Assembly (NCBI GenBank): GCA_964415895.1
Contig: CAYQCC010000001.1
Coordinates: 17,934 to 81,933, forward strand
Source of the DNA: an uncultured Candidatus Saccharibacteria bacterium
GTDB taxonomy: Bacteria > Patescibacteriota > Minisyncoccia > Phycocordibacterales > UBA1006
Reading direction: 5' to 3'
Length of the DNA stretch: 64,000 nt
Positions 6,160 to 47,991 of this stretch are shown piece after piece. Numbering within the stretch: the stretch's first letter is position 1; the number at the start of each line of letters is the position of its first letter. The translations under genes were made by a program, and so were the position numbers. The notes under the pieces are model-generated. The model was not told where the DNA came from. It ran no database searches and worked only from the letters and a program-made list of their open reading frames with translations.

Positions 6160-6633
6160 ATGAATATGACCTTTTCTAATTTTATGGATCTTGTTGCAAG
6201 ATTCGATTCAAAATCCTGGAGTAGAAAAGTGCCGGCTACCACAGGACATGTACATTGTGCATCATTAATTTTACCAGAACATATTGCTCTAGAATCCGTT
6301 GCGTCGATGTTATCGATCGGTAATCCTCTTTTTGTCATTACTGCAGAGTTTGCAGATAAATGTAAGCAGGCGAAAACTTGCTGTATTTATTTTATTGAAC
6401 AAGGATATAAAACTGTAACACTGTCAGAGTATGATACGAATAACAGTGTTGGTCCTATTCATGAGATAAAAGAAGAAAAACACCACGAAGGAATCGTTGG
6501 GATTACTTACGGAATTGCACAAACAGGAATTCTGGTAGGTGCGGCAGGTTTTAATGAAGCTGTAAAAACAGTTGCCAGCGAGATTGAGGTAAGAATTATT
6601 CACAACGCCATTTTTCTGGGAAATAATGGCTAA
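6160..6633 (+). CDS. hypothetical protein
   Basis: The ATG at 6160 is in-frame, downstream of the terminator. No confident family assignment. Confidence 0.4.
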   Translation: MNMTFSNFMDLVARFDSKSWSRKVPATTGHVHCASLILPEHIALESVASMLSIGNPLFVITAEFADKCKQAKTCCIYFIEQGYKTVTLSEYDTNNSVGPIHEIKEEKHHEGIVGITYGIAQTGILVGAAGFNEAVKTVASEIEVRIIHNAIFLGNNG

Positions 6634-19019: not shown

Positions 19020-19613
19020 ATGTATAATAATAATCATATGACAGAATATGATGAATTTATTGAAAAAGAAGAAGTCGGGGATGACCTGGAATTTGTTGAA
19101 ACTGACGCCATGGGCGACGAATTAAAGGACAAGGCAAAATTGAAAAAACTTCGTGAGGAATTAAAAACTGCCCAAACGGAAGCTCGCGACAGTCTCATGG
19201 CATTACAGCGATCGCGTGCTGATTATGTAAACTTGAAAAAGGAAAACGATGAAATTCGCACTACCGTAAAACAGCGTACTACTGAAAGCGTTATTATGGA
19301 TTTTCTGCCAGTGATCGATAGTTTTGATATGGCGATGGGTAATTCTGCTGCATGGGAAGCCGTAGATAAAAACTGGCGGGTAGGTGTGGAATATATTTAC
19401 AGTCAACTGAATACAACTCTTGATAATCATGGAATTTCCGCGATTGATAGTGTTGGCGTGGAATTTGATCCAAACTTGCACGAGCCGATGAAAACAGAGG
19501 ATACAGAGGATACAGCACAAGATCACAAAATTGCTCAGATTATCCAAAAAGGATACAAAATGGGTGACAAGGTTATTCGTCCAGCACGGGTTGTTGTGTA
19601 TAAATTAAAATAA
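19020..19613 (+). CDS. grpE: nucleotide exchange factor GrpE
   Basis: Coiled-coil N-terminus. The C-terminal VIDSFDMAM...VEFDPNLHEPM...KGYKMGDKVIRPARVVVYK region is typical of GrpE. Confidence 0.8.
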   Translation: MYNNNHMTEYDEFIEKEEVGDDLEFVETDAMGDELKDKAKLKKLREELKTAQTEARDSLMALQRSRADYVNLKKENDEIRTTVKQRTTESVIMDFLPVIDSFDMAMGNSAAWEAVDKNWRVGVEYIYSQLNTTLDNHGISAIDSVGVEFDPNLHEPMKTEDTEDTAQDHKIAQIIQKGYKMGDKVIRPARVVVYKLK

Positions 19614-19661
19614 TGCCTTTTGGCTTTATTTTTTTTATTAAATAGGAATATACTAAATTAT

Positions 19662-20099
19662 ATGAATACAAAAAAAGTTTTAACATCTATTGGAATCGGA
19701 TTAATCGTATTATTAATAGCGTTTTTTGCAGTATTTGGATCGTCTCTTAAAAATTTGAAAAAGGGAACAGTTGAAGTGCCTACCACTACAGAGCAGGTAA
19801 TGCCTACAGCTACAACAACAACTACTACGCCTACTAAAACGACTACATCGACACCTGCAGTTGCTACTGGATATACACTTTCAGATGTAGCAATGCATAA
19901 TTCAGCAACATCATGTTGGTCTGCAATCGATGGAAATGTGTATGATCTTACAAACTGGGTAAATTCACACCCAGGTGGAAAGGCTGCAATTTTGATGATC
20001 TGTGGAAAGGATGGATCGCCAATGTTTGAGTCACAGCATGGTGGACAGAATAAGCCTGCGAACATCTTGGCAAAATATAAAGTAGGTGCACTTAATTAA
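19662..20099 (+). CDS. membrane-anchored cytochrome b5-like heme-binding domain protein
   Basis: N-terminal transmembrane helix and Thr-rich linker. The C-terminus CWSAIDGNVYDLTNWVNSHPGG matches the cyt-b5 HPGG motif. The track ORF starts at TTG 19620; the first ATG is at 19662. Confidence 0.6.
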   Translation: MNTKKVLTSIGIGLIVLLIAFFAVFGSSLKNLKKGTVEVPTTTEQVMPTATTTTTTPTKTTTSTPAVATGYTLSDVAMHNSATSCWSAIDGNVYDLTNWVNSHPGGKAAILMICGKDGSPMFESQHGGQNKPANILAKYKVGALN

Positions 20100-20106
20100 T
20101 TATTTT

Positions 20107-20490
20107 ATGAATAATAGACAATATATTGGGATTAGTATTCTTCGCATTGCACTTTCATTTGTATTCCTTTGGTTTGGATTTTCACAGATGAGCAATGCCG
20201 CGCAGTGGGTTGGTTTTGTTCCAGATTGGGCGACATCAATCATGAGTGCAGGAACGCTTGTGTACCTAAACGGAATATTTGAAATTATTGCTGGACTTAT
20301 GCTTGCGATTGGAATTTTCCCTCGATACGTTGCGTTACTTCTCGGGCTTCATCTGTTGGTTATTTCATCAAGTCTTGGGTTTTCTGCAATCGGCGTTCGC
20401 GATATCGGATTATCGTTTGCAACATTGTCATTATTCTTTTTAGGGAATGATAAGTTGGCATTAAGTTATAAGGAAAGTACTAGTAATTAA
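20107..20490 (+). CDS. DoxX family membrane protein
   Basis: 4-transmembrane pattern; ILRIALSFVFLWFGFSQ is typical of DoxX. ATG at 20107 (the track ORF starts at GTG 20086). Confidence 0.5.
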   Translation: MNNRQYIGISILRIALSFVFLWFGFSQMSNAAQWVGFVPDWATSIMSAGTLVYLNGIFEIIAGLMLAIGIFPRYVALLLGLHLLVISSSLGFSAIGVRDIGLSFATLSLFFLGNDKLALSYKESTSN

Positions 20491-20493
20491 TAT

Positions 20494-20727
20494 ATGACAT
20501 ATATTGATGTACGCACACCCGAAGAGTTTGCATCAGGTCATTATCCTGATGCTATAAATCATCCTGTTGAATTAATCATGCAGGGAATGTTTCCGGAACT
20601 TTCAAAAGACACAGAAATTAATTTGTACTGCAGATCTGGTGCTCGAGCAGGAATGGCTCAGCAGATGATGCAACAGGCAGGTTTTACAAATGTCACCAAC
20701 AAAGGCGGTCTATCAGATTTAAAATAA
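20494..20727 (+). CDS. rhodanese-like domain protein
   Basis: 77 aa with the active-site Cys loop YCRSGARAG. Confidence 0.7.
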   Translation: MTYIDVRTPEEFASGHYPDAINHPVELIMQGMFPELSKDTEINLYCRSGARAGMAQQMMQQAGFTNVTNKGGLSDLK

Positions 20728-20750
20728 AAACACCATTTGGTGTTTTTATT
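20727..20750. terminator. bidirectional terminator AAAACACCA-UU-UGGUGUUUU between convergent genes
   Basis: Perfect palindrome flanked by A-run and T-run. Confidence 0.65.
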
Positions 20751-21291
20751 TTTGAAATATTTTTAACAACTCAGTCTCTGTTTCCGCGTCCAGATTATTC
20801 GTTGTCATGATCATCATTTCTGTCGTCAGGTCCAGATCTTTCTTGATATTCATAAACAGGTGTTCGTAGGGAAATGGGGAAATCCATGCTGAATTTTTGA
20901 GTAATTCAAACCCGGCTTTTTTCAAGAGATATCGCAATGCCTCGCGTTCGGATTTTCGGGATTCTGGTAGATCAAGCAATACGATCCGCCACTGTCCGTC
21001 CCAGTTGGGAACCAGGGTAGAATCCGATTCCAATTGGATACTGACTGCCTTTCGTTTACCAGCCCGGGTCAGCCGTGCATAGTCGTTCTGGCCTGAAAAA
21101 TGGCTCTCTACAAGGCCTGATTCATGCAAACCGCGCAATGACCGATTCAGGGCATATTGTGCCTTTTTTGGGTCATTTTCAGCCTTTTCAGAGACGTCCT
21201 TTATAAGTTTGCCTGCAAGATCAGGAAAGGAAACCGCACGATTCTCAGACAGTATTTTCAATATTTTCTTGGAGTAATCTTGATTTTTCAT
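20746..21291 (-). CDS. putative transcriptional regulator, PaaX-like (winged-helix N-terminus; C-terminal WDGQWRIVLLDLPE region)
   Basis: The DGxW..V..DlPE.....R...R..L...GF motif resembles the PaaX C-terminal domain. The N-terminus is winged-helix-like. The assignment is tentative. Confidence 0.35.
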   Translation of the reverse strand: MKNQDYSKKILKILSENRAVSFPDLAGKLIKDVSEKAENDPKKAQYALNRSLRGLHESGLVESHFSGQNDYARLTRAGKRKAVSIQLESDSTLVPNWDGQWRIVLLDLPESRKSEREALRYLLKKAGFELLKNSAWISPFPYEHLFMNIKKDLDLTTEMMIMTTNNLDAETETELLKIFQK

Positions 21292-21314
21292 AAATAGTAT
21301 TTACCTCACCCTAG

Positions 21315-21383
21315 CCCTCTCCTACATAGGAGAGGGAATAAGCCACAAAACGCGAGTCAGTCCTTCTCCTATGTAGGAGAAGG
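21315..21383. repeat. inverted pair of 22-bp dyad-symmetric elements (CCCTCTCCTACATAGGAGAGGG ... CCTTCTCCTATGTAGGAGAAGG) in a divergent promoter region
   Basis: Each 22-mer is a perfect palindrome. The second is the reverse complement of the first with 2 substitutions. They are separated by 25 nt. The same family recurs at 28325-28440. Confidence 0.6.
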
Positions 21384-21406
21384 TGGCGGCACGCCGGATG
21401 ATGTAC

Positions 21407-21434
21407 TTGACTCTTAAAAAGGATAGCATATAAT
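21407..21434 (+). promoter_or_regulatory. sigma70-like promoter TTGACT-16-TATAAT
   Basis: -35 at 21407-12 and -10 at 21429-34, upstream of the 21486 CDS. Confidence 0.5.
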
Positions 21435-21485
21435 AGACATTGTACAAGTATTTCGCGACCGCGGAATAATTGTTAATATTTAATT

Positions 21486-22010
21486 ATGAAAAGAATTTAT
21501 ATTACAGGAGCATCAGGGACAGGTAAATCTACTATAGCAAAAAGATTGAAAGAATCAGGAATGCCTTCATTTGATTTAGATAAAGAAGAAGGTTTATGTA
21601 CTTGGATTCATAAGACGACACAGGAAAGAAGTAGGTGGAATCCTGAGAAAGATGCAGAATTTTTTGAATCAAATGATTATGTTTGCGACAAGGAAAAGCT
21701 TGCTGGATTAATGAGTCAACACGAAGAAACAGACGAAGCTGTAGTTGTTGTAGGACTTTGCGACAATCAAGCCCAGCTGCTCGATTTGTTTGATAAGATT
21801 ATTCTGCTTACGTGCCCTGAAGAAGTTTTCTTGAAAAGAATAAATGAACGGGAACAGCCTTTTGGAAAGGGAGAATCTGAAAAGCAAATGATATTAGGCT
21901 GGTATAAAGACGTTGAAAAAGAATCTCTTGAAAACGGTGCTATCACTATCAATGTTGATCAGCCTATCGAAGAGGTCATGAATGAAGTTATTAAGCTAAT
22001 TAAAAGTTAA
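21486..22010 (+). CDS. P-loop NTPase, small kinase-like (AAA_33 / adenylate-kinase-like fold)
   Basis: Walker A GASGTGKST at residues 8-16. Length 174 aa. Confidence 0.5.
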   Translation: MKRIYITGASGTGKSTIAKRLKESGMPSFDLDKEEGLCTWIHKTTQERSRWNPEKDAEFFESNDYVCDKEKLAGLMSQHEETDEAVVVVGLCDNQAQLLDLFDKIILLTCPEEVFLKRINEREQPFGKGESEKQMILGWYKDVEKESLENGAITINVDQPIEEVMNEVIKLIKS

Positions 22011-22069
22011 ACAAAAAAAGCCGTTCGAAATGAATCTACTTAGCTTAATACCATACTTTCTTTTTAGAT

Positions 22070-22303
22070 TTAGACTCGCCCTGGCCATGGTGGTCGATGT
22101 TCTTCAACGAAAATCCTTATCAACAAGATAAATGCAATAATGCCTCCAAAGAAGCTAATCAACGCACATAAAAACAACAAGTGTTCGTGGTGAATAAACA
22201 AACCGCTTTCTCTGCCATAAAGAAATAAAATAAAAAAGATGGTGTAAAGAACTAAATAGATAATACGAATTTTTTTCATTGTCTTAGATTTTATTAGAAA
22301 CAT
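22070..22303 (-). CDS. small hydrophobic protein (2 predicted transmembrane helices), hypothetical
   Basis: ORF only. The product is hydrophobic. Confidence 0.3.
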
Positions 22304-22339
22304 AATATCACTTTATTAATTAACTGTCAAATAAACTAT

Positions 22340-24223
22340 ATGTCAAAAATCATTGGAATCGATTTAGGAACCACAAACTCGGCGGTAGCCATCATCGAGG
22401 GTGGTCAACCAAAAATTATTGAAAACACAGAAGGTGCACGAACAACGCCCTCTATCATTGCGCAGGCAAAAAACGGTGACCGAATGGTCGGAGCTTTGGC
22501 TAAACGACAGGCGGTTACGAATCCTGAAAATACCATTTTCGGAATCAAACGATACATGGGTCACAAATTCAGCGACGAAGTAGTGACAAAAGATATTCCT
22601 CATTCACCGTTCAAGATTTCTAAAGGAACAGACGATCGCGTAATGGTGAAATTCGGAGGCGAGGATAAAAGCCCGGAAGAAATTTCTGCAATGATCCTTT
22701 CAAAAATCAAGGCGGATGTGGAGGCAAAACTTGGTGAGAAAATCACCGAAGCTGTTATTACCGTACCTGCGTACTTTGACGACGCACAGCGTCAAGCTAC
22801 AGTTAATGCAGGTAAAATTGCAGGTCTTGATGTTAAGCGAATCATCAACGAACCAACAGCTGCGGCTTTGGCTTACGGATTCAACTCTAAAAAAGATCAG
22901 AAGATCGCCGTGTACGATTTCGGAGGTGGAACATTCGATATTTCAGTTCTGGAGGTTGGGGCGGACTTGGTAGAGGTTAAATCTACTGACGGAGACGCAC
23001 ACATGGGTGGAGAAGACATCGATCGAAAGATTGTTGCATGGATTGGTGATGAATTTAAAAAGGAATCAGGATTGGATGTTACGAAAGACGTTCTTGCATT
23101 GCAGCGTTTGAAAGAAGCAGCTGAAAAAGCAAAGCACGAACTTTCAACAACAACAGAAACTGAAATCAATATTCCGTTTATCGCGCAGAACGACGGAGTT
23201 CCTCAACACTTGATGATGAAGATGTCACGAAGCAAACTTGAAGAATTGGCTGCAGAATTTGTAGATCGATCAATCGAAATCACAAAACGAGCCATTGCTG
23301 CATCACCATATAAAATTGGCGAGATCGACGAAATCATCATGGTTGGAGGACAGACTCGAATGCCAAAAATTGTCGAGGAAGTGAAGAAGCTGTTTGGAAA
23401 AGAACCAAACCGAACAATCAATCCTGATGAAGTGGTAGCTTTGGGTGCTGCAGTTCAGGCTGGAGTATTGCAAGGTGATGTAAAAGACGTTCTTCTTCTT
23501 GATGTAATTCCATTGTCACTAGGAATCGAAACAATGGGAGGAGTAGCGACAAAGCTGATCGAGCGAAACACGACGATCCCGACATCAAAATCACAAGTCT
23601 TTTCAACAGCATCAGACAACCAAACATCAGTGGATATTCATATCGTTCAGGGTGAACGACCGATGACATCTGATAACAAATCTTTGGGACGATTCGTGCT
23701 AGGTGATATTGCACCAGCTCCACGCGGAATTCCACAGATCGAGGTAACATTCGATATCGATGCAAACGGAATCTTGAACGTGAAAGCAACTGACAAGGCA
23801 ACTAACAAGGAAGCTTCAATCACCATCCAATCAGGAGGAGGTTTGTCAGATGCTGATATCAAGAAAATGCAGGAAGATGCCGAGAAATACAAAGAAGAAG
23901 ATGAAAAGAAAAAGGAATTGGTGGATAAAAGAAATACGGCTGAAACATCAATCTTTGCAGCAGAAAAATCTTTGAAAGAATATGCTGACAAATTGGATGA
24001 TGCGACTAAAACTACGATCAACGAAAAAATCACAGCCTTGAAGGATGTGAAAGATAAAGACGATGCGGCAGCAATTGATTCTGCAACATCTTCACTTTCA
24101 GATGAAATGATGAAGATCTACGAAATTATACAGAAAGCTGGAGCGGAAGCTCAACCTGAAGCTGCAACAGAGGAAACTGCGGAAGAAACTAAAACAGAAG
24201 AGGGGGGTGAGGAAGGGAAATAA
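22340..24223 (+). CDS. dnaK: molecular chaperone DnaK (Hsp70)
   Basis: [18 protein letters not shown]-type motifs and the overall length (627 aa). Confidence 0.95.
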
Positions 24224-24236
24224 AAAACAGTCTTAT

Positions 24237-24281
24237 TCAACTAACATCTAAAATGTTAATCGAATAAGACCAGTAAGAAAT
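24237..24281 (-). terminator. terminator hairpin for the small minus-strand ORF (GUCUUAUUC...GAAUAAGAC with nested inner hairpin; U-run on the minus strand)
   Basis: 9-bp outer stem. rc(24225-24236) gives UGUUUUUU immediately 3' on the minus strand. Confidence 0.45.
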
Positions 24282-24293
24282 GAAAATTTCATG

Positions 24294-24494
24294 CTAAGCA
24301 ATTATTACGCCGAATTCTTTGTTTAAAATCTTACGGAAAGAAGAATAGCCAAAAATGACGGCTACTGCACATAAGATTTCAACAGAAGCTGGAAATAAAA
24401 GCTTAGGAAGTTCAATTTTCACATTTACAAAAAATGGAAACGCTACCATGCATACTGCACCACATAGCATAAGAAAAAACGATAGATATTTCAT
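24294..24494 (-). CDS. small hydrophobic protein, hypothetical
   Basis: ORF only; 2 predicted transmembrane helices. Confidence 0.3.
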   Translation of the reverse strand: MKYLSFFLMLCGAVCMVAFPFFVNVKIELPKLLFPASVEILCAVAVIFGYSSFRKILNKEFGVIIA

Positions 24495-24635
24495 AAAGAT
24501 TGTTTAATTGAATTATATATTAGCATATATAGCTTACTTTGTCAATATATTATTCAACCTTCTTTCCGAACATGTCTAAGGACGTGTTTGGTATAGAGGT
24601 GAGAAAATCTCAATCTCGTGTATACTTATAAACTT

Positions 24636-25544
24636 ATGAGTAAAGACTATTACAAAACATTAGGAGTAGATAAAAAAGCAACAGAGCCCGAGATAAAGGC
24701 TGCTTTTCGTAAACTTGCTCATCAACATCATCCAGATAAAAACGGAGGAAAGGATGAAAAGTTCAAAGAAATTAACGAGGCATACCAAACTCTTTCGAAT
24801 TCGCAAAAGCGAGCGCAGTATGACCAGTTCGGATCATCTGGACCAGGAGGTTTTGGAGGTGGTCAGCAGGGAAATCCGTTCGGTGGTGGAGCTTTCAATT
24901 GGGAAGATATCATGCGACAGGCACAACAAGGTCAAGGCGGTGCGCAGTTTGATTTTGGCGATATTGATTTGGGAGATTTGTTTGGTGCATTTGGATTCGG
25001 TGGACAGCGTGTACGAAGAGGGCGAAACATTGAGGTTCAAATGAAAATGACATTCAAGGAGTCAGTTCGTGGATTTACACGTGATATTGATGTTCCTGAT
25101 TATCGTGACGGAAAACAGTCTGGAATGAAAAAAGTTTCTGTAACAATTCCAGCAGGGGTCACGCATGGTCAACAATTGCAAATGGATGGAGCAGGGGAAT
25201 CTGTAACTGATGGTCGTCCAGGAAGTTTGATTATTACAGCTATTGTTGAAAAACATCCTACTATCCGAAAGGAGGGACAGCATTTGGTTATGGATCTGCA
25301 TGTATCGTTGATCGACGCTTTGCTTGGAAAGAAGGTCGAGGTTGAAACATTAGACGGAAAGGAAACAATTGAAATTCCAGAGGGAATGCCAGTGAACCAT
25401 GTGATCAAATTGAAAGGAAAAGGTGTATCAGCAGGATTTATGCGTAATGGTGATTTTCTGATTGAAACACATATTGATATGCCAAAAAAGATTTCTAAGT
25501 CTGCTAAACAGAAAATCGAAGACTTGCGAGGCGACTTGGCATAG
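24636..25544 (+). CDS. dnaJ: DnaJ-like co-chaperone (J domain, G/F-rich, C-terminal substrate-binding domains, no CxxCxGxG zinc finger)
   Basis: DYYKTLGVDKKATEPEIKAAFRKLAHQHHPDKN J domain. GGFGGGQQGNPFGGG linker. No Cys repeats. The track ORF starts at 24618; the MSKDYY start is at 24636. Confidence 0.75.
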   Translation: MSKDYYKTLGVDKKATEPEIKAAFRKLAHQHHPDKNGGKDEKFKEINEAYQTLSNSQKRAQYDQFGSSGPGGFGGGQQGNPFGGGAFNWEDIMRQAQQGQGGAQFDFGDIDLGDLFGAFGFGGQRVRRGRNIEVQMKMTFKESVRGFTRDIDVPDYRDGKQSGMKKVSVTIPAGVTHGQQLQMDGAGESVTDGRPGSLIITAIVEKHPTIRKEGQHLVMDLHVSLIDALLGKKVEVETLDGKETIEIPEGMPVNHVIKLKGKGVSAGFMRNGDFLIETHIDMPKKISKSAKQKIEDLRGDLA

Positions 25545-27366: not shown

Positions 27367-28269
27367 TTACAGCCACTTCTTCTTGTTGAAATACATCATC
27401 ATAATCAAAAGAATAACAACCAGTATTCCTATTACGATCCAAAATCCGTTTTCTCCGTGGAAGATATGTGGCGATGCAGGATCGAATAATATAATTGCAA
27501 TTAATGAAAGAGGGAATGTAACGAACGACATTAATGTAAGTGTTCGCATAATTTCGTTAGTTCTATTTGTAAGTAATGAATCGTATGTCTGACGTAATTC
27601 CTGCGTCATTTCGCGAGAACTATCCATAATGGTTGTCAGGTGATAATACCGATGCATAATTGACTGTACAACAGATTCAAATTCATCACCAAACAATGCA
27701 ATTGCTTCATGTTCAAACGATGTAAGGATTTCATGATGAAACCGCAGTGCTGACTTACAATCAAGTAATTTTCTGTGAAGAGTAATTAATATTTTAGAGA
27801 TTGAAGAATCGTTTTCACCAAAGATTCTATTTTCTACATCAGTAATATCCTTTTTAATAAGTGACAATTCATCAATAAGACCATCATACAGATCGTCGAT
27901 CATTAGTCCAAAAATATTTCCACCATGGATATCTGCCATGGGTGACTTGTTGCTTGCAGTGTGTTTTTTCTCGAACGATAACAACGTATCTATTGGCAAA
28001 TATCTATTAGTAATAATGAACTTTTTATGTACTATAAAATCGATTTCAATAGCGCCTCCAGTTTTATGTGCTGGGTGATCGGGAAAATGAAGAACAAAAA
28101 ACAGATAATCATCGTACCGGACTGCTTTTGCTCGCAAAGATGGACGCAATAATTCGATCGCACATGACTCATTAATATCAAATTCGTTAATAATAGTATG
28201 GATTTCCTCGGTGGTTGGGTTTTCCAAATCAATCCATGGAATGCCGTATAAATCATTGCGGTTTATCAT
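27367..28269 (-). CDS. CorA-like divalent cation transporter (divergent; GMN motif absent)
   Basis: Soluble N-terminal domain plus 2 C-terminal transmembrane helices ending KKKWL. ...FPLSLIAIILFDPASP occupies the position of the YGMNF motif. Apparently co-transcribed with cysS (20-nt gap). Confidence 0.5.
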   Translation of the reverse strand: MINRNDLYGIPWIDLENPTTEEIHTIINEFDINESCAIELLRPSLRAKAVRYDDYLFFVLHFPDHPAHKTGGAIEIDFIVHKKFIITNRYLPIDTLLSFEKKHTASNKSPMADIHGGNIFGLMIDDLYDGLIDELSLIKKDITDVENRIFGENDSSISKILITLHRKLLDCKSALRFHHEILTSFEHEAIALFGDEFESVVQSIMHRYYHLTTIMDSSREMTQELRQTYDSLLTNRTNEIMRTLTLMSFVTFPLSLIAIILFDPASPHIFHGENGFWIVIGILVVILLIMMMYFNKKKWL

Positions 28270-28324
28270 ATGGACAAAAGTATAGCATTTTAGGGACAGT
28301 TTTGGTAGCTTTTTTGTATTTCAT

Positions 28325-28440
28325 CCCCTCCTAAATTAGGAGAGGTGACCGAAGGTCGGGGTGGTATTTTGAGTGCATTACTTATCCATAAATCTTCTTG
28401 ATCCTCGTGCCTCAGGTCAGTCTCCTAATTTATGAGGGGG
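28325..28440. repeat. second inverted pair of CCCCTCCTAAATTAGGAGAGG-type dyad elements, flanking a 72-nt spacer, in the corA/cysS-rplU divergent promoter region
   Basis: 28325-28345 and 28420-28440 are near reverse complements of each other. Each contains the CTCCTAA-TTAGGAG dyad. This is the same family as at 21315-21383. Confidence 0.55.
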
Positions 28441-28453
28441 TTCAATGCTTTGC

Positions 28454-28481
28454 TTGCATTTCTTTTGAAATTATGTATACT
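28454..28481 (+). promoter_or_regulatory. promoter TTGCAT-16-TATACT for rplU
   Basis: Hexamers read from the sequence. ATG at 28492. Confidence 0.45.
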
Positions 28482-28491
28482 GGTACGCATT

Positions 28492-28899
28492 ATGGCATCA
28501 ACAACTACGTCAAAAAAAGCACCTGCAAAAAAGGCTGCTACAAAAAAAGTGAGCACTAAAAAGGCGGTAAATTCTGAGAATTCAGCATTTGCGGTTATTG
28601 CAACTGGTGGAAAACAATACATTGTTCGTGTAGGTGATGTGATCACTATCGAGAAAATGGATGGTGAGTTTGCAGAAGGCCAAGCGACTTCATTTGATCA
28701 AGTATTGCTTACTAACGATGGAACAGCTACAAAAGTAGGCGCTCCAACGGTATCTGGCGCAAAAGTTTCTGCAGAGTTTATCGAAGCAGGACGAGACAAA
28801 AAAGTAATGGTTGTTAAATACAAAGCTAAATCTCGTTACTTAAAGAAAAACGGACACCGACAGCCTCACATGAAATTCAAGATTACTGCAATTGCGTAA
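28492..28899 (+). CDS. rplU: 50S ribosomal protein L21 with Lys/Ala-rich N-terminal extension
   Basis: FAVIATGGKQYIVRVGDVITIEK...KVMVVKYKAKSRYLKKNGHRQPHMKFKITAI. Confidence 0.85.
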   Translation: MASTTTSKKAPAKKAATKKVSTKKAVNSENSAFAVIATGGKQYIVRVGDVITIEKMDGEFAEGQATSFDQVLLTNDGTATKVGAPTVSGAKVSAEFIEAGRDKKVMVVKYKAKSRYLKKNGHRQPHMKFKITAIA

Positions 28900-29150: not shown

Positions 29151-29867
29151 ATGACTGAAAGAATCTCTGGACCCTCTGCAGTTTCGTCTGCTTGGAGTGC
29201 ATTTAAAAAGAATTGGAAATTTATTATACCTGCAGGAATTGTGACCGTTGTTGTTATGATTCTGTTACAAACGCTTCAGAAAAGCGTGCAAGACTCGCCA
29301 ATTCTTGGTCTGATCTTTGCCTTAGTCTCTGTAGTTATTGGGATCGCAATTGCGCTAGGTTGGTCACAAGTTATCTTGAAATTAGTCCGCCATCAGCATG
29401 TTGATTGGAACAGTTTCAAAACAAACACAAATACTTGGTTCCCATATTTTGTGTCACGTTTGATACTTGGAATATTTATCTTTCTATCACTATTACTTAT
29501 CGGTATTCCACTATTCTTTATTATTGGTTCAATGATGAGTGCATCGGTTCCATTGATGATCGTAGGAATCATTGTAGGTATTGCAGGAATCGCATTGTTC
29601 ATTTGGATTGGAATTCGCTACATGTTCATTTCGTTTGTTGCTATTGATAAGAATGTTAATGGTTGGAAAATAATGAAAGAATCAGCACGACTTACAAAAG
29701 GGCATACAGTTGAATTATTTGTATTTATCCTATTTATCATATTAATTAATATTATCGGACTCCTACTATTGGTTGTTGGATTGATTATCACGATTCCTGT
29801 TAGTAAGATTGCAACAGGGTATGTGTACGAACATTTGAAAGGGAAACATGAAATGAAAGGTGAATAA
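29151..29867 (+). CDS. polytopic membrane protein, hypothetical (about 6 transmembrane helices)
   Basis: Hydrophobicity pattern only. Confidence 0.4.
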   Translation: MTERISGPSAVSSAWSAFKKNWKFIIPAGIVTVVVMILLQTLQKSVQDSPILGLIFALVSVVIGIAIALGWSQVILKLVRHQHVDWNSFKTNTNTWFPYFVSRLILGIFIFLSLLLIGIPLFFIIGSMMSASVPLMIVGIIVGIAGIALFIWIGIRYMFISFVAIDKNVNGWKIMKESARLTKGHTVELFVFILFIILINIIGLLLLVVGLIITIPVSKIATGYVYEHLKGKHEMKGE

Positions 29868-29870
29868 AAT

Positions 29871-29924
29871 AACTGAGTAACAGAAAAACCACATCATTTG
29901 ATGTGGTTTTTCTGTTACTCAGTT
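29871..29924 (+). terminator. very long perfect hairpin (26-bp stem, 2-nt centre) with terminator core AAAAACCACAUCA/UGAUGUGGUUUUU
   Basis: rc(29871-29896) = 29899-29924 exactly. Confidence 0.6.
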
Positions 29925-29943
29925 ATCCACAGATAAATATGAG

Positions 29944-37857: not shown

Positions 37858-38955
37858 ATGAATCAAGAAATAGCTGAAAAATTAAAATCTCTAGAATCCA
37901 AATACAGTTATAATCAGGATGAGGTTTATTATTTCAATTCTCATCGTTCTTCAGACCTTGTTTTGTCATTGCAGAATCGGTTTGAAACATTCGATGAATC
38001 AATTATTCCAGAGATCTTTAAAGATTTTGGAGAAGCGGAAAGCTGGACAGTCAATCAAAGTTTTGGAACAGGTCATATTATTATTTTTGTGAGTACAAAA
38101 GATGGAAAGGAATATGTGTTACGTACAAATTATGGAATTGCTGAACCAGAGAAATATATGCAATTTGAAAAGTATTTCGCGCAACAATATGAATCTGTAG
38201 GCATTCCTACCGCAAAAGTGTTGCATAGTGATATTTCTCGCGAAAAATACCCATTTGATTATCAGATCATGGAAAAACTTGGTGGTTATGATTTGAAAAC
38301 TGATCCAGATATTACAGAGGAGCAATATGAAATGATTTCACAAGATCTTGGAAAGGTAGTGGCAAAGCAGTTTTTATTACCCATAAAAGGGTTTGGTCGG
38401 ATCGTTCTTAGGGATAGTATTTATCAAGGAAATTACAATACACACAATGAGTATCTATCGGCGTATGTCGACCATGACCTTGATGTAATGGAATTATTTG
38501 AAATCATTGATCACGAATCAAATATAATGATATTAAATTTTTTCAAATCTGAAGACATAAAAAATCTCTTTGTAAGTACATCATCATATCTAGTACATCA
38601 CGATTTAGCTGATCATAACATTCGAGTAAAGAATGGAAAGCTATTAGCAATTTATGATTGGGAAAATGTCGTGGCGTTTGATCCACTTTCAGAGCTAGGC
38701 TCAATTCCTACGTGGCTATCGCGCTATCCGAGAGCCCCAGGAATGATAATAGGCTTCTTGGAATCTTATGGTCATATGCCTGAAAACTTCGAATTGAAAC
38801 TGTCAGTCTATAAATTGCGTACTATGTTATGGAAGGCTAATCTAGCTTTAAAAGGTGAAAAGTTGTCACATCGGCATATTGATTACCTACGACAAGCATT
38901 ACAAGAATGTGGCTTGGATATAATAATTAATTCTGATCATTTAACATTGAAATAA
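37858..38955 (+). CDS. protein-kinase-like (APH / choline-kinase family) phosphotransferase
   Basis: Brenner motif HHDLADHN (HxDxxxxN) and IYDWE (D-x-E metal-binding loop). The track ORF begins at TTG 37849; the ATG is at 37858. Confidence 0.55.
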   Translation: MNQEIAEKLKSLESKYSYNQDEVYYFNSHRSSDLVLSLQNRFETFDESIIPEIFKDFGEAESWTVNQSFGTGHIIIFVSTKDGKEYVLRTNYGIAEPEKYMQFEKYFAQQYESVGIPTAKVLHSDISREKYPFDYQIMEKLGGYDLKTDPDITEEQYEMISQDLGKVVAKQFLLPIKGFGRIVLRDSIYQGNYNTHNEYLSAYVDHDLDVMELFEIIDHESNIMILNFFKSEDIKNLFVSTSSYLVHHDLADHNIRVKNGKLLAIYDWENVVAFDPLSELGSIPTWLSRYPRAPGMIIGFLESYGHMPENFELKLSVYKLRTMLWKANLALKGEKLSHRHIDYLRQALQECGLDIIINSDHLTLK

Positions 38956-38956
38956 T

Positions 38957-38984
38957 AAAAATACCTTATTAATAAGGTATTTTT
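38957..38984. terminator. 28-nt perfect palindrome terminator AAAAAUACCUUAUU|AAUAAGGUAUUUUU
   Basis: Perfect dyad flanked by A-run and T-run. Confidence 0.6.
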
Positions 38985-39018
38985 ATTATTTCTCGGAATC
39001 TGTTAAAATGGCTGTATT

Positions 39019-45361: not shown

Positions 45362-45411
45362 CAGTATGATATGAAAAACCTCTCAATCGAGAGGTTTTTC
45401 ATATCATACTG
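45362..45411. terminator. 23-bp perfect-stem hairpin (loop AAUC) acting as a convergent terminator; overlaps the NUDIX stop codon
   Basis: rc(45362-45384) = 45389-45411 exactly. Core AAAAACCUCUC/GAGAGGUUUUU. Confidence 0.6.
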
Positions 45412-47756: not shown

Positions 47757-47784
47757 AAATATTTATTATTATATCATTAAATAC

Positions 47785-47811
47785 AAAAACAGCTCAAATT
47801 GAGCTGTTTTT
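47785..47811. terminator. bidirectional terminator AAAACAGCUC-AAAUU-GAGCUGUUUUU
   Basis: 6-bp perfect stem with A-run and T-run. It lies downstream of tRNA-Glu on the minus strand. Confidence 0.6.
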
Positions 47812-47991
47812 GTATACTTCTCGTGCTAGCACGAGATGTTGGTCACAAGTCACTAAGTAAAATTCTTCGCTACGCTCAAATTGTACTAAGTGCTCGCGAC
47901 CCCGTCTCGCTTGTCCATCATTTCATTCTGGACATAGCTCCGACTTCACACTCGTTCGCACGCAAAGCAGTTTGCGTGCTTTGCACTCGTG

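Follow-up and report, generated by a model that had tools for sequence, protein, structure and literature searches.

Paired dyads beside a PaaX-like regulator gene as probable BoxC/PIT/TM-type repeats in a CPR-like genome, and their association with DUF559 genes

The locus and its paired dyads

The stretch of DNA analysed here (64 kb, referred to throughout as the window) has a G+C content of 37% and a gene content typical of a CPR/Patescibacteria-like genome. A gene on its minus strand (20746-21291) has as its product a short member of a large protein family, with winged-helix and PaaX_M domains (the latter at E 2.7e-20). Divergently from this gene, a plus-strand promoter at 21407-21434 (TTGACT-16-TATAAT; 11 of 12 positions match) has a P-loop kinase gene behind it. 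The earlier note had placed two dyads, at 21315-21383, between this kinase promoter and a leaderless start of the PaaX-like gene. The PaaX_M gene and the promoter are both borne out by our analysis; the leaderless start is unsupported in this genome, since the sole promoter-like site on the minus strand (TTAACA-18-AATACT, 21476-21447) implies a leader of ~150 nt, inside which the element would lie.

Dyad 1 (21315-21336; CCCTCTCCTA-ca-TAGGAGAGGG) and dyad 2 (21362-21383; CCTTCTCCTA-tg-TAGGAGAAGG) each have 10-bp arms that are perfectly complementary. They had been described as perfect 22-bp palindromes 25 nt apart; the distance and the perfection of the arms are correct. The two-nucleotide centres, CA in one and TG in the other, lack self-complementarity; they orient each dyad and limit the term perfect palindrome to the arms. 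Dyad 2 is indeed dyad 1 inverted, apart from one change that is compensated in the other arm (C3>T together with G20>A). We found three matches to CTCCTA-N2-3-TAGGAG in the window compared with none in 100 shuffles, which excludes chance and agrees with the earlier view that such a motif is unlikely to recur by chance, and a mismatch-tolerant dyad search of the window added as its sole extra copy a degenerate fourth one at 28422-28436. In the predicted fold, calculated from Watson-Crick pairs only, the two dyads pair with each other and the 25-nt spacer between them (21337-21361; AATAAGCCACAAAACGCGAGTCAGT) forms the tip of a long hairpin. The doublet spans ~105-120 bp (21286/21303-21405), with a predicted folding energy of -57.2 kcal/mol as RNA (z-score -7.5) and -22 kcal/mol as DNA (z-score -4.2).

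A different dyad, unique in the window, is found just downstream of the TATAAT box at 21444-21473 (ACAAGTATTTCGCG-ac-CGCGGAATAATTGT; 14-bp arms). It occupies the same place in the related loci L003 and L005, is recognisable in L210, and has as its counterpart in L006 a perfect palindrome with 14-bp arms (ACAAGTTTTTTGCG-tt-CGCAAAAAACTTGT). Judged from the sequences, it would be a better candidate operator of the PaaX-like protein than the dyads at 21315-21383.

The PaaX-like gene sits between grpE and dnaK in relatives. Across 19020-25544 of the window and in L003, L005, L006 and L210, a short PaaX_M gene can be seen between grpE and dnaK/dnaJ, divergent from dnaK, and no hrcA-like gene was noticed beside grpE in any of these regions. 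In the window, the P-loop kinase gene (21486-22010) and a 77-codon membrane ORF (22070-22303, minus strand) lie between the promoter and dnaK. This arrangement suggests that the PaaX_M protein is a CPR heat-shock regulator in the role of HrcA/CIRCE. The dyad at 21444-21473 resembles a CIRCE/HrcA operator in being a promoter dyad at the grpE-dnaK-dnaJ locus beside a repressor-like gene, whereas the dyads at 21315-21383, unlike such operators, are absent from the orthologous loci.

Presence and absence in related lineages

The PaaX-like proteins of L003/L004 and L005 are 89-90% identical to that of the window and are encoded in the same gene order, and the promoter region of these loci aligns with the window base for base. 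In these relatives, the ATG of the PaaX-like gene lies directly against the -35 box of the divergent promoter and even overlaps it, whereas the window carries ~120 extra bases between the -35 box and the gene, with both dyads inside. Alignment with L003, L004 and L005 places the segment that is absent from the orthologous loci at 21286-21405, beginning just past the rightward promoter's -35 box and reaching codon 2-3 of the PaaX-like gene, with ends that are accurate to a few bases. The ATG itself (21289-21291) and a GGTGAGGT run 11 nt upstream of it are inside or at the edge of this segment, and the rightward promoter retains a good -35 box (TTGACT instead of TTGACA). The locus A dyads are also absent from L006, L210 and L209 (75%, 73% and 70% identical, respectively), so that the comparison of orthologous regions covers five related lineages without them (L003/L004, L005, L006-L008, L209 and L210).

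The element type had also been reported to recur at 28325-28440, and an inverted pair is indeed present there, but decayed. The first hairpin of this locus B (28325-28345; CCCCTCCTAAATTAGGAGAGG) has one arm mismatch, and the second is a remnant (28421-28440; TCTCCTAATTTATGAGGGGG); the predicted DNA fold (z-score -5.0) joins the two by base pairing. They are found in ~165 bp of DNA between corA and rplU that is extra in the window, where the corA-rplU spacer measures 222 bp compared with 56 bp in L003 and L005. Locus B is a second, older, decayed doublet gained between these two genes. Since the window has extra DNA with dyads where its relatives have none, loci A and B are both lineage-specific gains, which is not the behaviour expected of operators of a conserved regulator. 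The term insertion rests here on presence versus absence, and on the sequence comparison loss in all relatives would be a formally possible, less parsimonious account.

We found no clear target-site duplication at locus A and no sharp element ends at either locus. TCAAG and ATG-like strings occur on both sides of locus A and are indistinguishable from partial homology to the ancestral gene start. At locus B, the left flank is not significantly similar to the right one (123 of 300 shuffles gave a score at least as high), and the right flank alone is homologous to the ancestral spacer.

Relatives of the region 28267-28500 have corA and rplU 56 bp apart with overlapping divergent promoters (L003, 1903-1958), and their corA mRNA may be leaderless or almost so, to judge from a TATACT -10-like box ~7-9 nt before the corA ATG. 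In the window, the corA and rplU promoters were moved apart by the repeat insertion.

Triplex units and their relatives in other phyla

BoxC elements were rediscovered as PIT (potential intrastrand triplex) elements and later renamed triplex motifs (TM; 'TMECO') (Hoyne et al. 2000; Holder et al. 2015, PMC4666352). A TM unit consists of a pyrimidine arm, a loop, a purine arm, 2-3 nt and a G-rich third strand, a typical E. coli unit being CCCTCTCCC-tgt-GGGAGAGGG-cc-GGGGTGAGGG, and such units have been found in E. coli and >260 other genomes (PMC4666352). All 23 copies in E. coli are intergenic, and at five sites two subtypes are combined in an inverted pair; the elements show an association with local genomic variability, and no mobility genes were found nearby (PMC4666352). 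Triplex formation by TMs was undetected in double-stranded DNA or in vivo, and earlier tests of PIT elements in E. coli showed no promoter or terminator activity (PMC4666352).

Module A1 of the window (21303-21336, minus strand) is a complete intrastrand-triplex unit of the BoxC/PIT/TM type. Read on the minus strand, it comprises the hairpin CCCTCTCCTA-tg-TAGGAGAGGG (21336-21315), the linker CTA and the third strand GGGTGAGG(T) (21311-21303). All eight of its eight triads obey the purine-motif rule, under which the third run is antiparallel to the purine arm and forms G·G, A·A and T·A contacts, and the linker is 3 nt long. A finder that was blind to the actual sequence returned A1 as the only perfect unit in the 64 kb. 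Module A2 (21362-21403, plus strand) is a slightly decayed copy of a second subtype, with the hairpin CCTTCTCCTA-tg-TAGGAGAAGG (21362-21383), a GC mini-hairpin GGCGGCACGCC (~21385-21395) and the third strand GGATGATG (21396-21403); it has seven of eight triads and a 12-nt linker, and so does not fit the strict definition of ITxF, in which loops measure 1-6 nt. The third strand of A2 has A where its purine arm (GGAGAAGG) has A, in agreement with the covariation of the GGAGAAGG subfamily described below.

At locus B, module B1 (28325-28365, plus strand) is a decayed copy of the CCCCCTCC subtype with the hairpin CCCCTCCTAA-a-TTAGGAGAGG, the mini-hairpin GACCGAAGGTC and the third strand GGGGTGGT, and it passes a relaxed version of the triplex-unit test. 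Module B2 (28400-28440, minus strand) repeats B1 in inverted orientation and is so strongly decayed that it fails this test; its inner flank CTGACCTGAGGCACGAGGATC is the counterpart of the mini-hairpin and third strand of B1. Hairpins of the BoxC/PIT/TM type have stems of 6-15 nt with an all-pyrimidine 5' arm and an all-purine 3' arm; these arms are perfect in A1 (CCCTCTCC(TA)/(TA)GGAGAGGG) and A2 (CCTTCTCC/GGAGAAGG), and B1 has one mismatch. In related DNA (~74 kb from L003, L005, L006, L209 and L210), the search gave no triplex unit.

Four long perfect inverted repeats elsewhere in the window (29869-29926, 38949-38992, 45362-45411 and 47781-47815; arms of 17-28 nt) are A/T-rich with a short G/C core, and the first of them directly follows the stop codon of the ORF at 29151-29867. 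They resemble long terminators and bear no relation to the triplex modules.

The similarity of A1 to the E. coli repeats extends to sequence. The three 8-mers of A1 are identical to those of TMECO type B units (Table 1 of PMC4666352), and TMECO units such as CCCTCTCCCTGTGGGAGAGGGCCGGGGTGAGGGC share the three blocks of the window modules (PMC4666352). The blocks of A1 (CCCTCTCC, loop, GGAGAGGG, 2-3 nt, GGGTGAGG) have the same order and nearly the same sequence as those of BoxC/PIT/TM units. As in that family, the elements of the window follow the purine-motif triad rule, are intergenic, can be solitary or combine two subtypes in an inverted pair, and are tied to presence/absence variation between close relatives; the window holds two intergenic loci, each an inverted pair, with A1 and A2 representing different subtypes. 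The window hairpins differ from those of E. coli in being longer by a TA step with a 2-3-nt centre (CTCCTA-NN-TAGGAG) rather than a 3-5-nt loop. The GC mini-hairpin between the A2 hairpin and its third strand is a further difference, as is the host, here a small CPR-like genome of 37% G+C.

A scan for CCYYCTCCTANNTAGGAGRRGG in one genome per species gave at least 120 matches, compared with ~9 expected by our own estimate, in at least 54 genomes of many phyla. The matches listed include Patescibacteria, Saccharibacteria, Chloroflexota, Melainabacteria, Gammaproteobacteria, Bacteroidota, Latescibacterota, Cloacimonadota and Spirochaetota; among them are the cultured gammaproteobacterium Agitococcus lubricus and the Chloroflexota MAG JAIFLK01, which carries the module on >30 contigs. 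A one-sided flank (ACCTCACCCC or GGGGTGAGGT, arranged as ACCTCACCCC-nn-dyad or its reverse complement) accompanies 115 of the 133 copies among these matches, and A1 also has this family flank, at 21303-21314. A perfect 8/8 purine-motif third strand can be found within 45 nt in 120 of the same 133 copies, whereas shuffled flanks gave a mean of 1.3 and a maximum of 5. Hairpin arm and third strand covary between subfamilies: GGAGAGGG occurs with GGGTGAGG or GGGAGAGG, GGAGAAGG with GGTTGAGG or GGATGAGG, and GGAGGGGG with GGGGGTGG.

Among the matches listed, the copies occur in both orientations relative to neighbouring genes (54 vs 53), modules are far commoner singly than as pairs, and both head-to-head and tail-to-tail pairs are seen. 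No recurrent gene was found directly downstream of the GGGGTGAGGT end in these matches, the neighbours being assorted housekeeping genes. In several other genomes, the GGTGAGGT run is located 5-14 nt before a start codon.

In JAIFLK01 (L010, L015, L021 and >30 other loci), the module is nearly always joined, in inverted orientation, to a second triplex unit (CTCCCCCCGATGTCGGGGGGAT + TAAGGGGGGTAG). This composite doublet is present in high copy and combines two subtypes, as do the A+B pairs of E. coli. Rfam searches of the window at gathering thresholds returned three tRNAs only, and at lenient E-values the region 21200-21520 and the L057 cassette (described below) gave only chance-level matches to microRNAs and leaders.

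We conclude that the dyads are very probably the hairpins of two inverted, lineage-specific copies of a BoxC/PIT/TM-type repeat and not an operator of the neighbouring regulator. The earlier suggestion of a REP/MITE-like mobile palindrome was of the right kind, the segment being lineage-specific and its family multi-copy, intergenic and spread across phyla; that family is BoxC/PIT/TM, not REP or classical MITE.

The DUF559 association and the alternatives weighed

We clustered all ORFs of the at least 120 motif-selected loci. DUF559, a family of Vsr-like PD-(D/E)XK nucleases, was the most recurrent small-gene family among the matches listed, with eight genes in eight genomes of different phyla (Pfam E ~1e-33), seven of which are within ~70 nt of a module. 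The DUF559 gene is exactly bracketed in L057 (Saccharibacteria) and L059 (Nomurabacteria), in the order tail-dyad(CA)-gene-dyad(TG)-tail, and one end of the L057 cassette is identical to 21303-21336 of the window at 34 of 34 positions. A tblastn search found no DUF559 homologue in the 64-kb window.

The cassettes at L057 (244-692) and L059 (~6180-6630) are nearly identical, each having ~450 bp made up of a triplex module, a DUF559 gene and an inverted module. Since their flanks are similar too, a shared insertion or horizontal transfer between CPR classes is possible. On a Saprospiraceae contig (L028, 2211-3413), the module is found four times in direct orientation, always preceded by the same ~45-nt flank. 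The copies follow one another at intervals of 306, 563 and 312 bp, with a DUF559 gene in the 563-bp interval; this layout resembles a cassette array.

We also examined a gene-first sample of 80 DUF559 loci from metagenomes, scanned with a 3-sequence alignment independently of the motif. A perfect unit is located within 200 bp of 40 of the 80 genes, and on both sides of 16 of them; the units are diverse in sequence and all follow the triad rule. Unit density is 2.44 per kb near the DUF559 gene compared with 0.21 per kb farther away (P 7e-33). A crude control confined to non-coding DNA gave 2.9 vs 1.2 units per kb (2.4-fold, P 0.0035), and cassette-carrying genomes are rich in triplex units generally. 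A unit was present in 48 of 114 intergenic gaps beside DUF559 genes (42%) and in 1 of 18 others (6%; P 0.003), a comparison that has only 18 control gaps. These controls weaken the DUF559 link and do not remove it.

In E. coli K-12, TMECO no. 9 lies ~165 bp from the 3' end of ycjD, which is annotated as encoding a DUF559 protein, and a degenerate hairpin overlaps the ycjD stop codon. The ycjD gene is present in 3378 of 5426 complete genomes. In ycjD-negative strains such as O157:H7 SS17, homology to K-12 stops ~40 nt before the TM and an efflux operon occupies the site. That the homology ends ahead of the TM in strains without ycjD indicates that TM and ycjD vary together as one block.

The site is located between fabI and sapF, where K-12 (L211, 1351040-1351830) carries TMECO no. 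9 and ycjD, and O157:H7 SS17 (L212) carries the efflux operon, with genes for a TetR regulator, an RND pump and an MFS transporter. In the K-12 spacer, part of the ycjD 3' end is also present as a short duplication, with two occurrences of gaatattctccagcaccgtctcc.

To our knowledge, DUF559 is a very large family to which almost no function has been assigned. Its closest solved structures are those of an uncharacterised DUF559 protein of Neisseria (3HRL) and of the homing endonuclease I-Bth0305I (3R3P). In the open-access literature, we found no paper that links DUF559 to BoxC/PIT/TM repeats.

Based on this association only, we tentatively propose, at somewhat less than even chances, that BoxC/PIT/TM repeats are cis-acting partners of DUF559 endonucleases in a REP/RAYT-like system. 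The full unit would be a ~350-bp DUF559 gene bracketed by inverted hairpin-plus-third-strand modules, and copies that lack the gene, whether single or in doublets like that at 21303-21403, would be non-autonomous derivatives or homing targets of the DUF559 cassette. The DUF559 nuclease might act on the hairpin or triplex structure of the modules. The parallel with REP/REPIN-RAYT systems lies in extragenic palindromes that are often inverted doublets, and in a small nuclease gene bracketed by inverted repeats with gene-less copies scattered in the genome. The systems differ in that the bracketed gene encodes a Vsr-like PD-(D/E)XK protein of the DUF559 family and not a Y1 HUH transposase, and in that the present repeats have a predicted triplex-forming third strand, lack a GTAG head and are near-identical across phyla.

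Four other explanations need to be weighed against a BoxC/PIT/TM identity. A classical MITE, an IS deletion derivative moved by an IS transposase acting on terminal inverted repeats, would account for a short (~105-bp), non-coding segment with inverted terminal modules, a long hairpin and presence/absence polymorphism, as well as for longer cassettes with the same ends (L057 and L059). Correia elements of Neisseria and RPEs of Rickettsia are likewise short and non-coding, with inverted ends and hairpin folds, and insert near or into gene starts, where they can supply expression signals. We nevertheless regard this origin as improbable. Unlike these MITEs, the window elements have no target-site duplication that we could find at locus A or B and no known parent IS; no transposase family recurs among the matches listed from the at least 120 motif-selected loci, and the gene between the cassette ends is that of a DUF559 nuclease and not of a known transposase. 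The modular units, mostly solitary and paired in both head-to-head and tail-to-tail fashion, are also unlike MITE ends. A still lower probability attaches to REP/REPIN elements kept by a RAYT (Y1 HUH) transposase, which seem extremely unlikely here even though the segment is an extragenic palindrome of a multi-copy family in which an inverted doublet gives one long hairpin. REP sequences are normally specific to a species, whereas the A1 34-mer is common to several phyla; the window has no RAYT or IS200-like gene and none recurs among the matches listed from the at least 120 loci; the conserved GTAG head is absent; and a conserved third strand that covaries with the hairpin is not a REP feature.

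The remaining alternatives concern the regulator gene itself. Paired operators of a dimeric regulator, possibly the adjacent PaaX-like protein regulating itself, had been proposed in the earlier note; that protein would be the likeliest candidate, controlling its own and the divergent promoter, and dyad symmetry, pairing and a divergent promoter region adjoining a winged-helix regulator gene all agree with that proposal. The dyads are not kept with the regulator, however, as the five related lineages retain both the regulator and the orthologous promoter without them; the corA/rplU locus is a lineage-specific gain as well; the 22-mer and its flank, forming the 34-nt A1 sequence, are found in distant phyla (among them Chloroflexota, Gammaproteobacteria, Melainabacteria and Bacteroidota) beside unrelated genes; and it is the 14-bp-arm dyad at 21444-21473 that is kept across orthologues. 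We therefore give the operator reading next to no credence. A main role at the RNA level, with the element acting as a stabilising or attenuating 5'-leader hairpin and providing a ribosome-binding site for the PaaX-like gene, would fit the very stable predicted hairpin (-57 kcal/mol, z-score -7.5) and the position of the GGTGAGGT run before the PaaX-like ATG and before start codons in several other genomes. Against it stand the relatives that do without the element, the even split of orientations (54 vs 53 among the matches listed), and covariation that obeys the triad rules of a DNA purine motif, a type of triplex that is not formed in RNA. The absence of promoter and terminator activity in the earlier tests (PMC4666352) also speaks against it. 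A transcript-stabilising hairpin is thus unlikely as the primary role, an RNA-level main role in general is very improbable, and any effect on PaaX-like expression is better seen as a by-product of insertion.

For a BoxC/PIT/TM-type repeat, the G-rich run would fold back on the purine arm in single-stranded DNA to give a purine-motif triple helix, and the repeat may be selfish or structural, with a sequence constrained by its own fold or by an enzyme that recognises the fold. Local side effects of the doublet on the PaaX-like gene are likely and, as we infer them, require no function of the element. Its insertion would have parted the coding sequence from the former promoter; a PaaX-like transcript from the old promoter region would begin with a leader that includes the element and folds strongly, and in which the GGTGAGGT run may serve as the ribosome-binding site.

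Triplex-motif repeats, which are tied to genome instability, are abundant in E. coli, cyanobacteria and Neisseria and, on our findings, in CPR bacteria too. Two divergent promoter regions of this small genome have been remodelled by repeat insertion, and at locus A the start codon and the likely ribosome-binding site are now at the edge of the inserted segment. Our result does away with a tempting wrong regulatory annotation, and the dyad at 21444-21473 now stands out as the candidate operator of the PaaX-like/dnaK locus. The finding at locus A is an ordinary one; greater interest lies in the association with DUF559 and in the dyad at 21444-21473. BoxC/PIT/TM repeats have been orphan elements for ~30 years. 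If the DUF559 proposal is true, they would belong to a second, mechanistically different REP/RAYT-like system that uses a structure-specific nuclease and occurs in most bacterial phyla, including the CPR. The reproducible physical link between DUF559 genes and these repeats makes both the mobility of the repeats and the function of DUF559 approachable by simple biochemistry.
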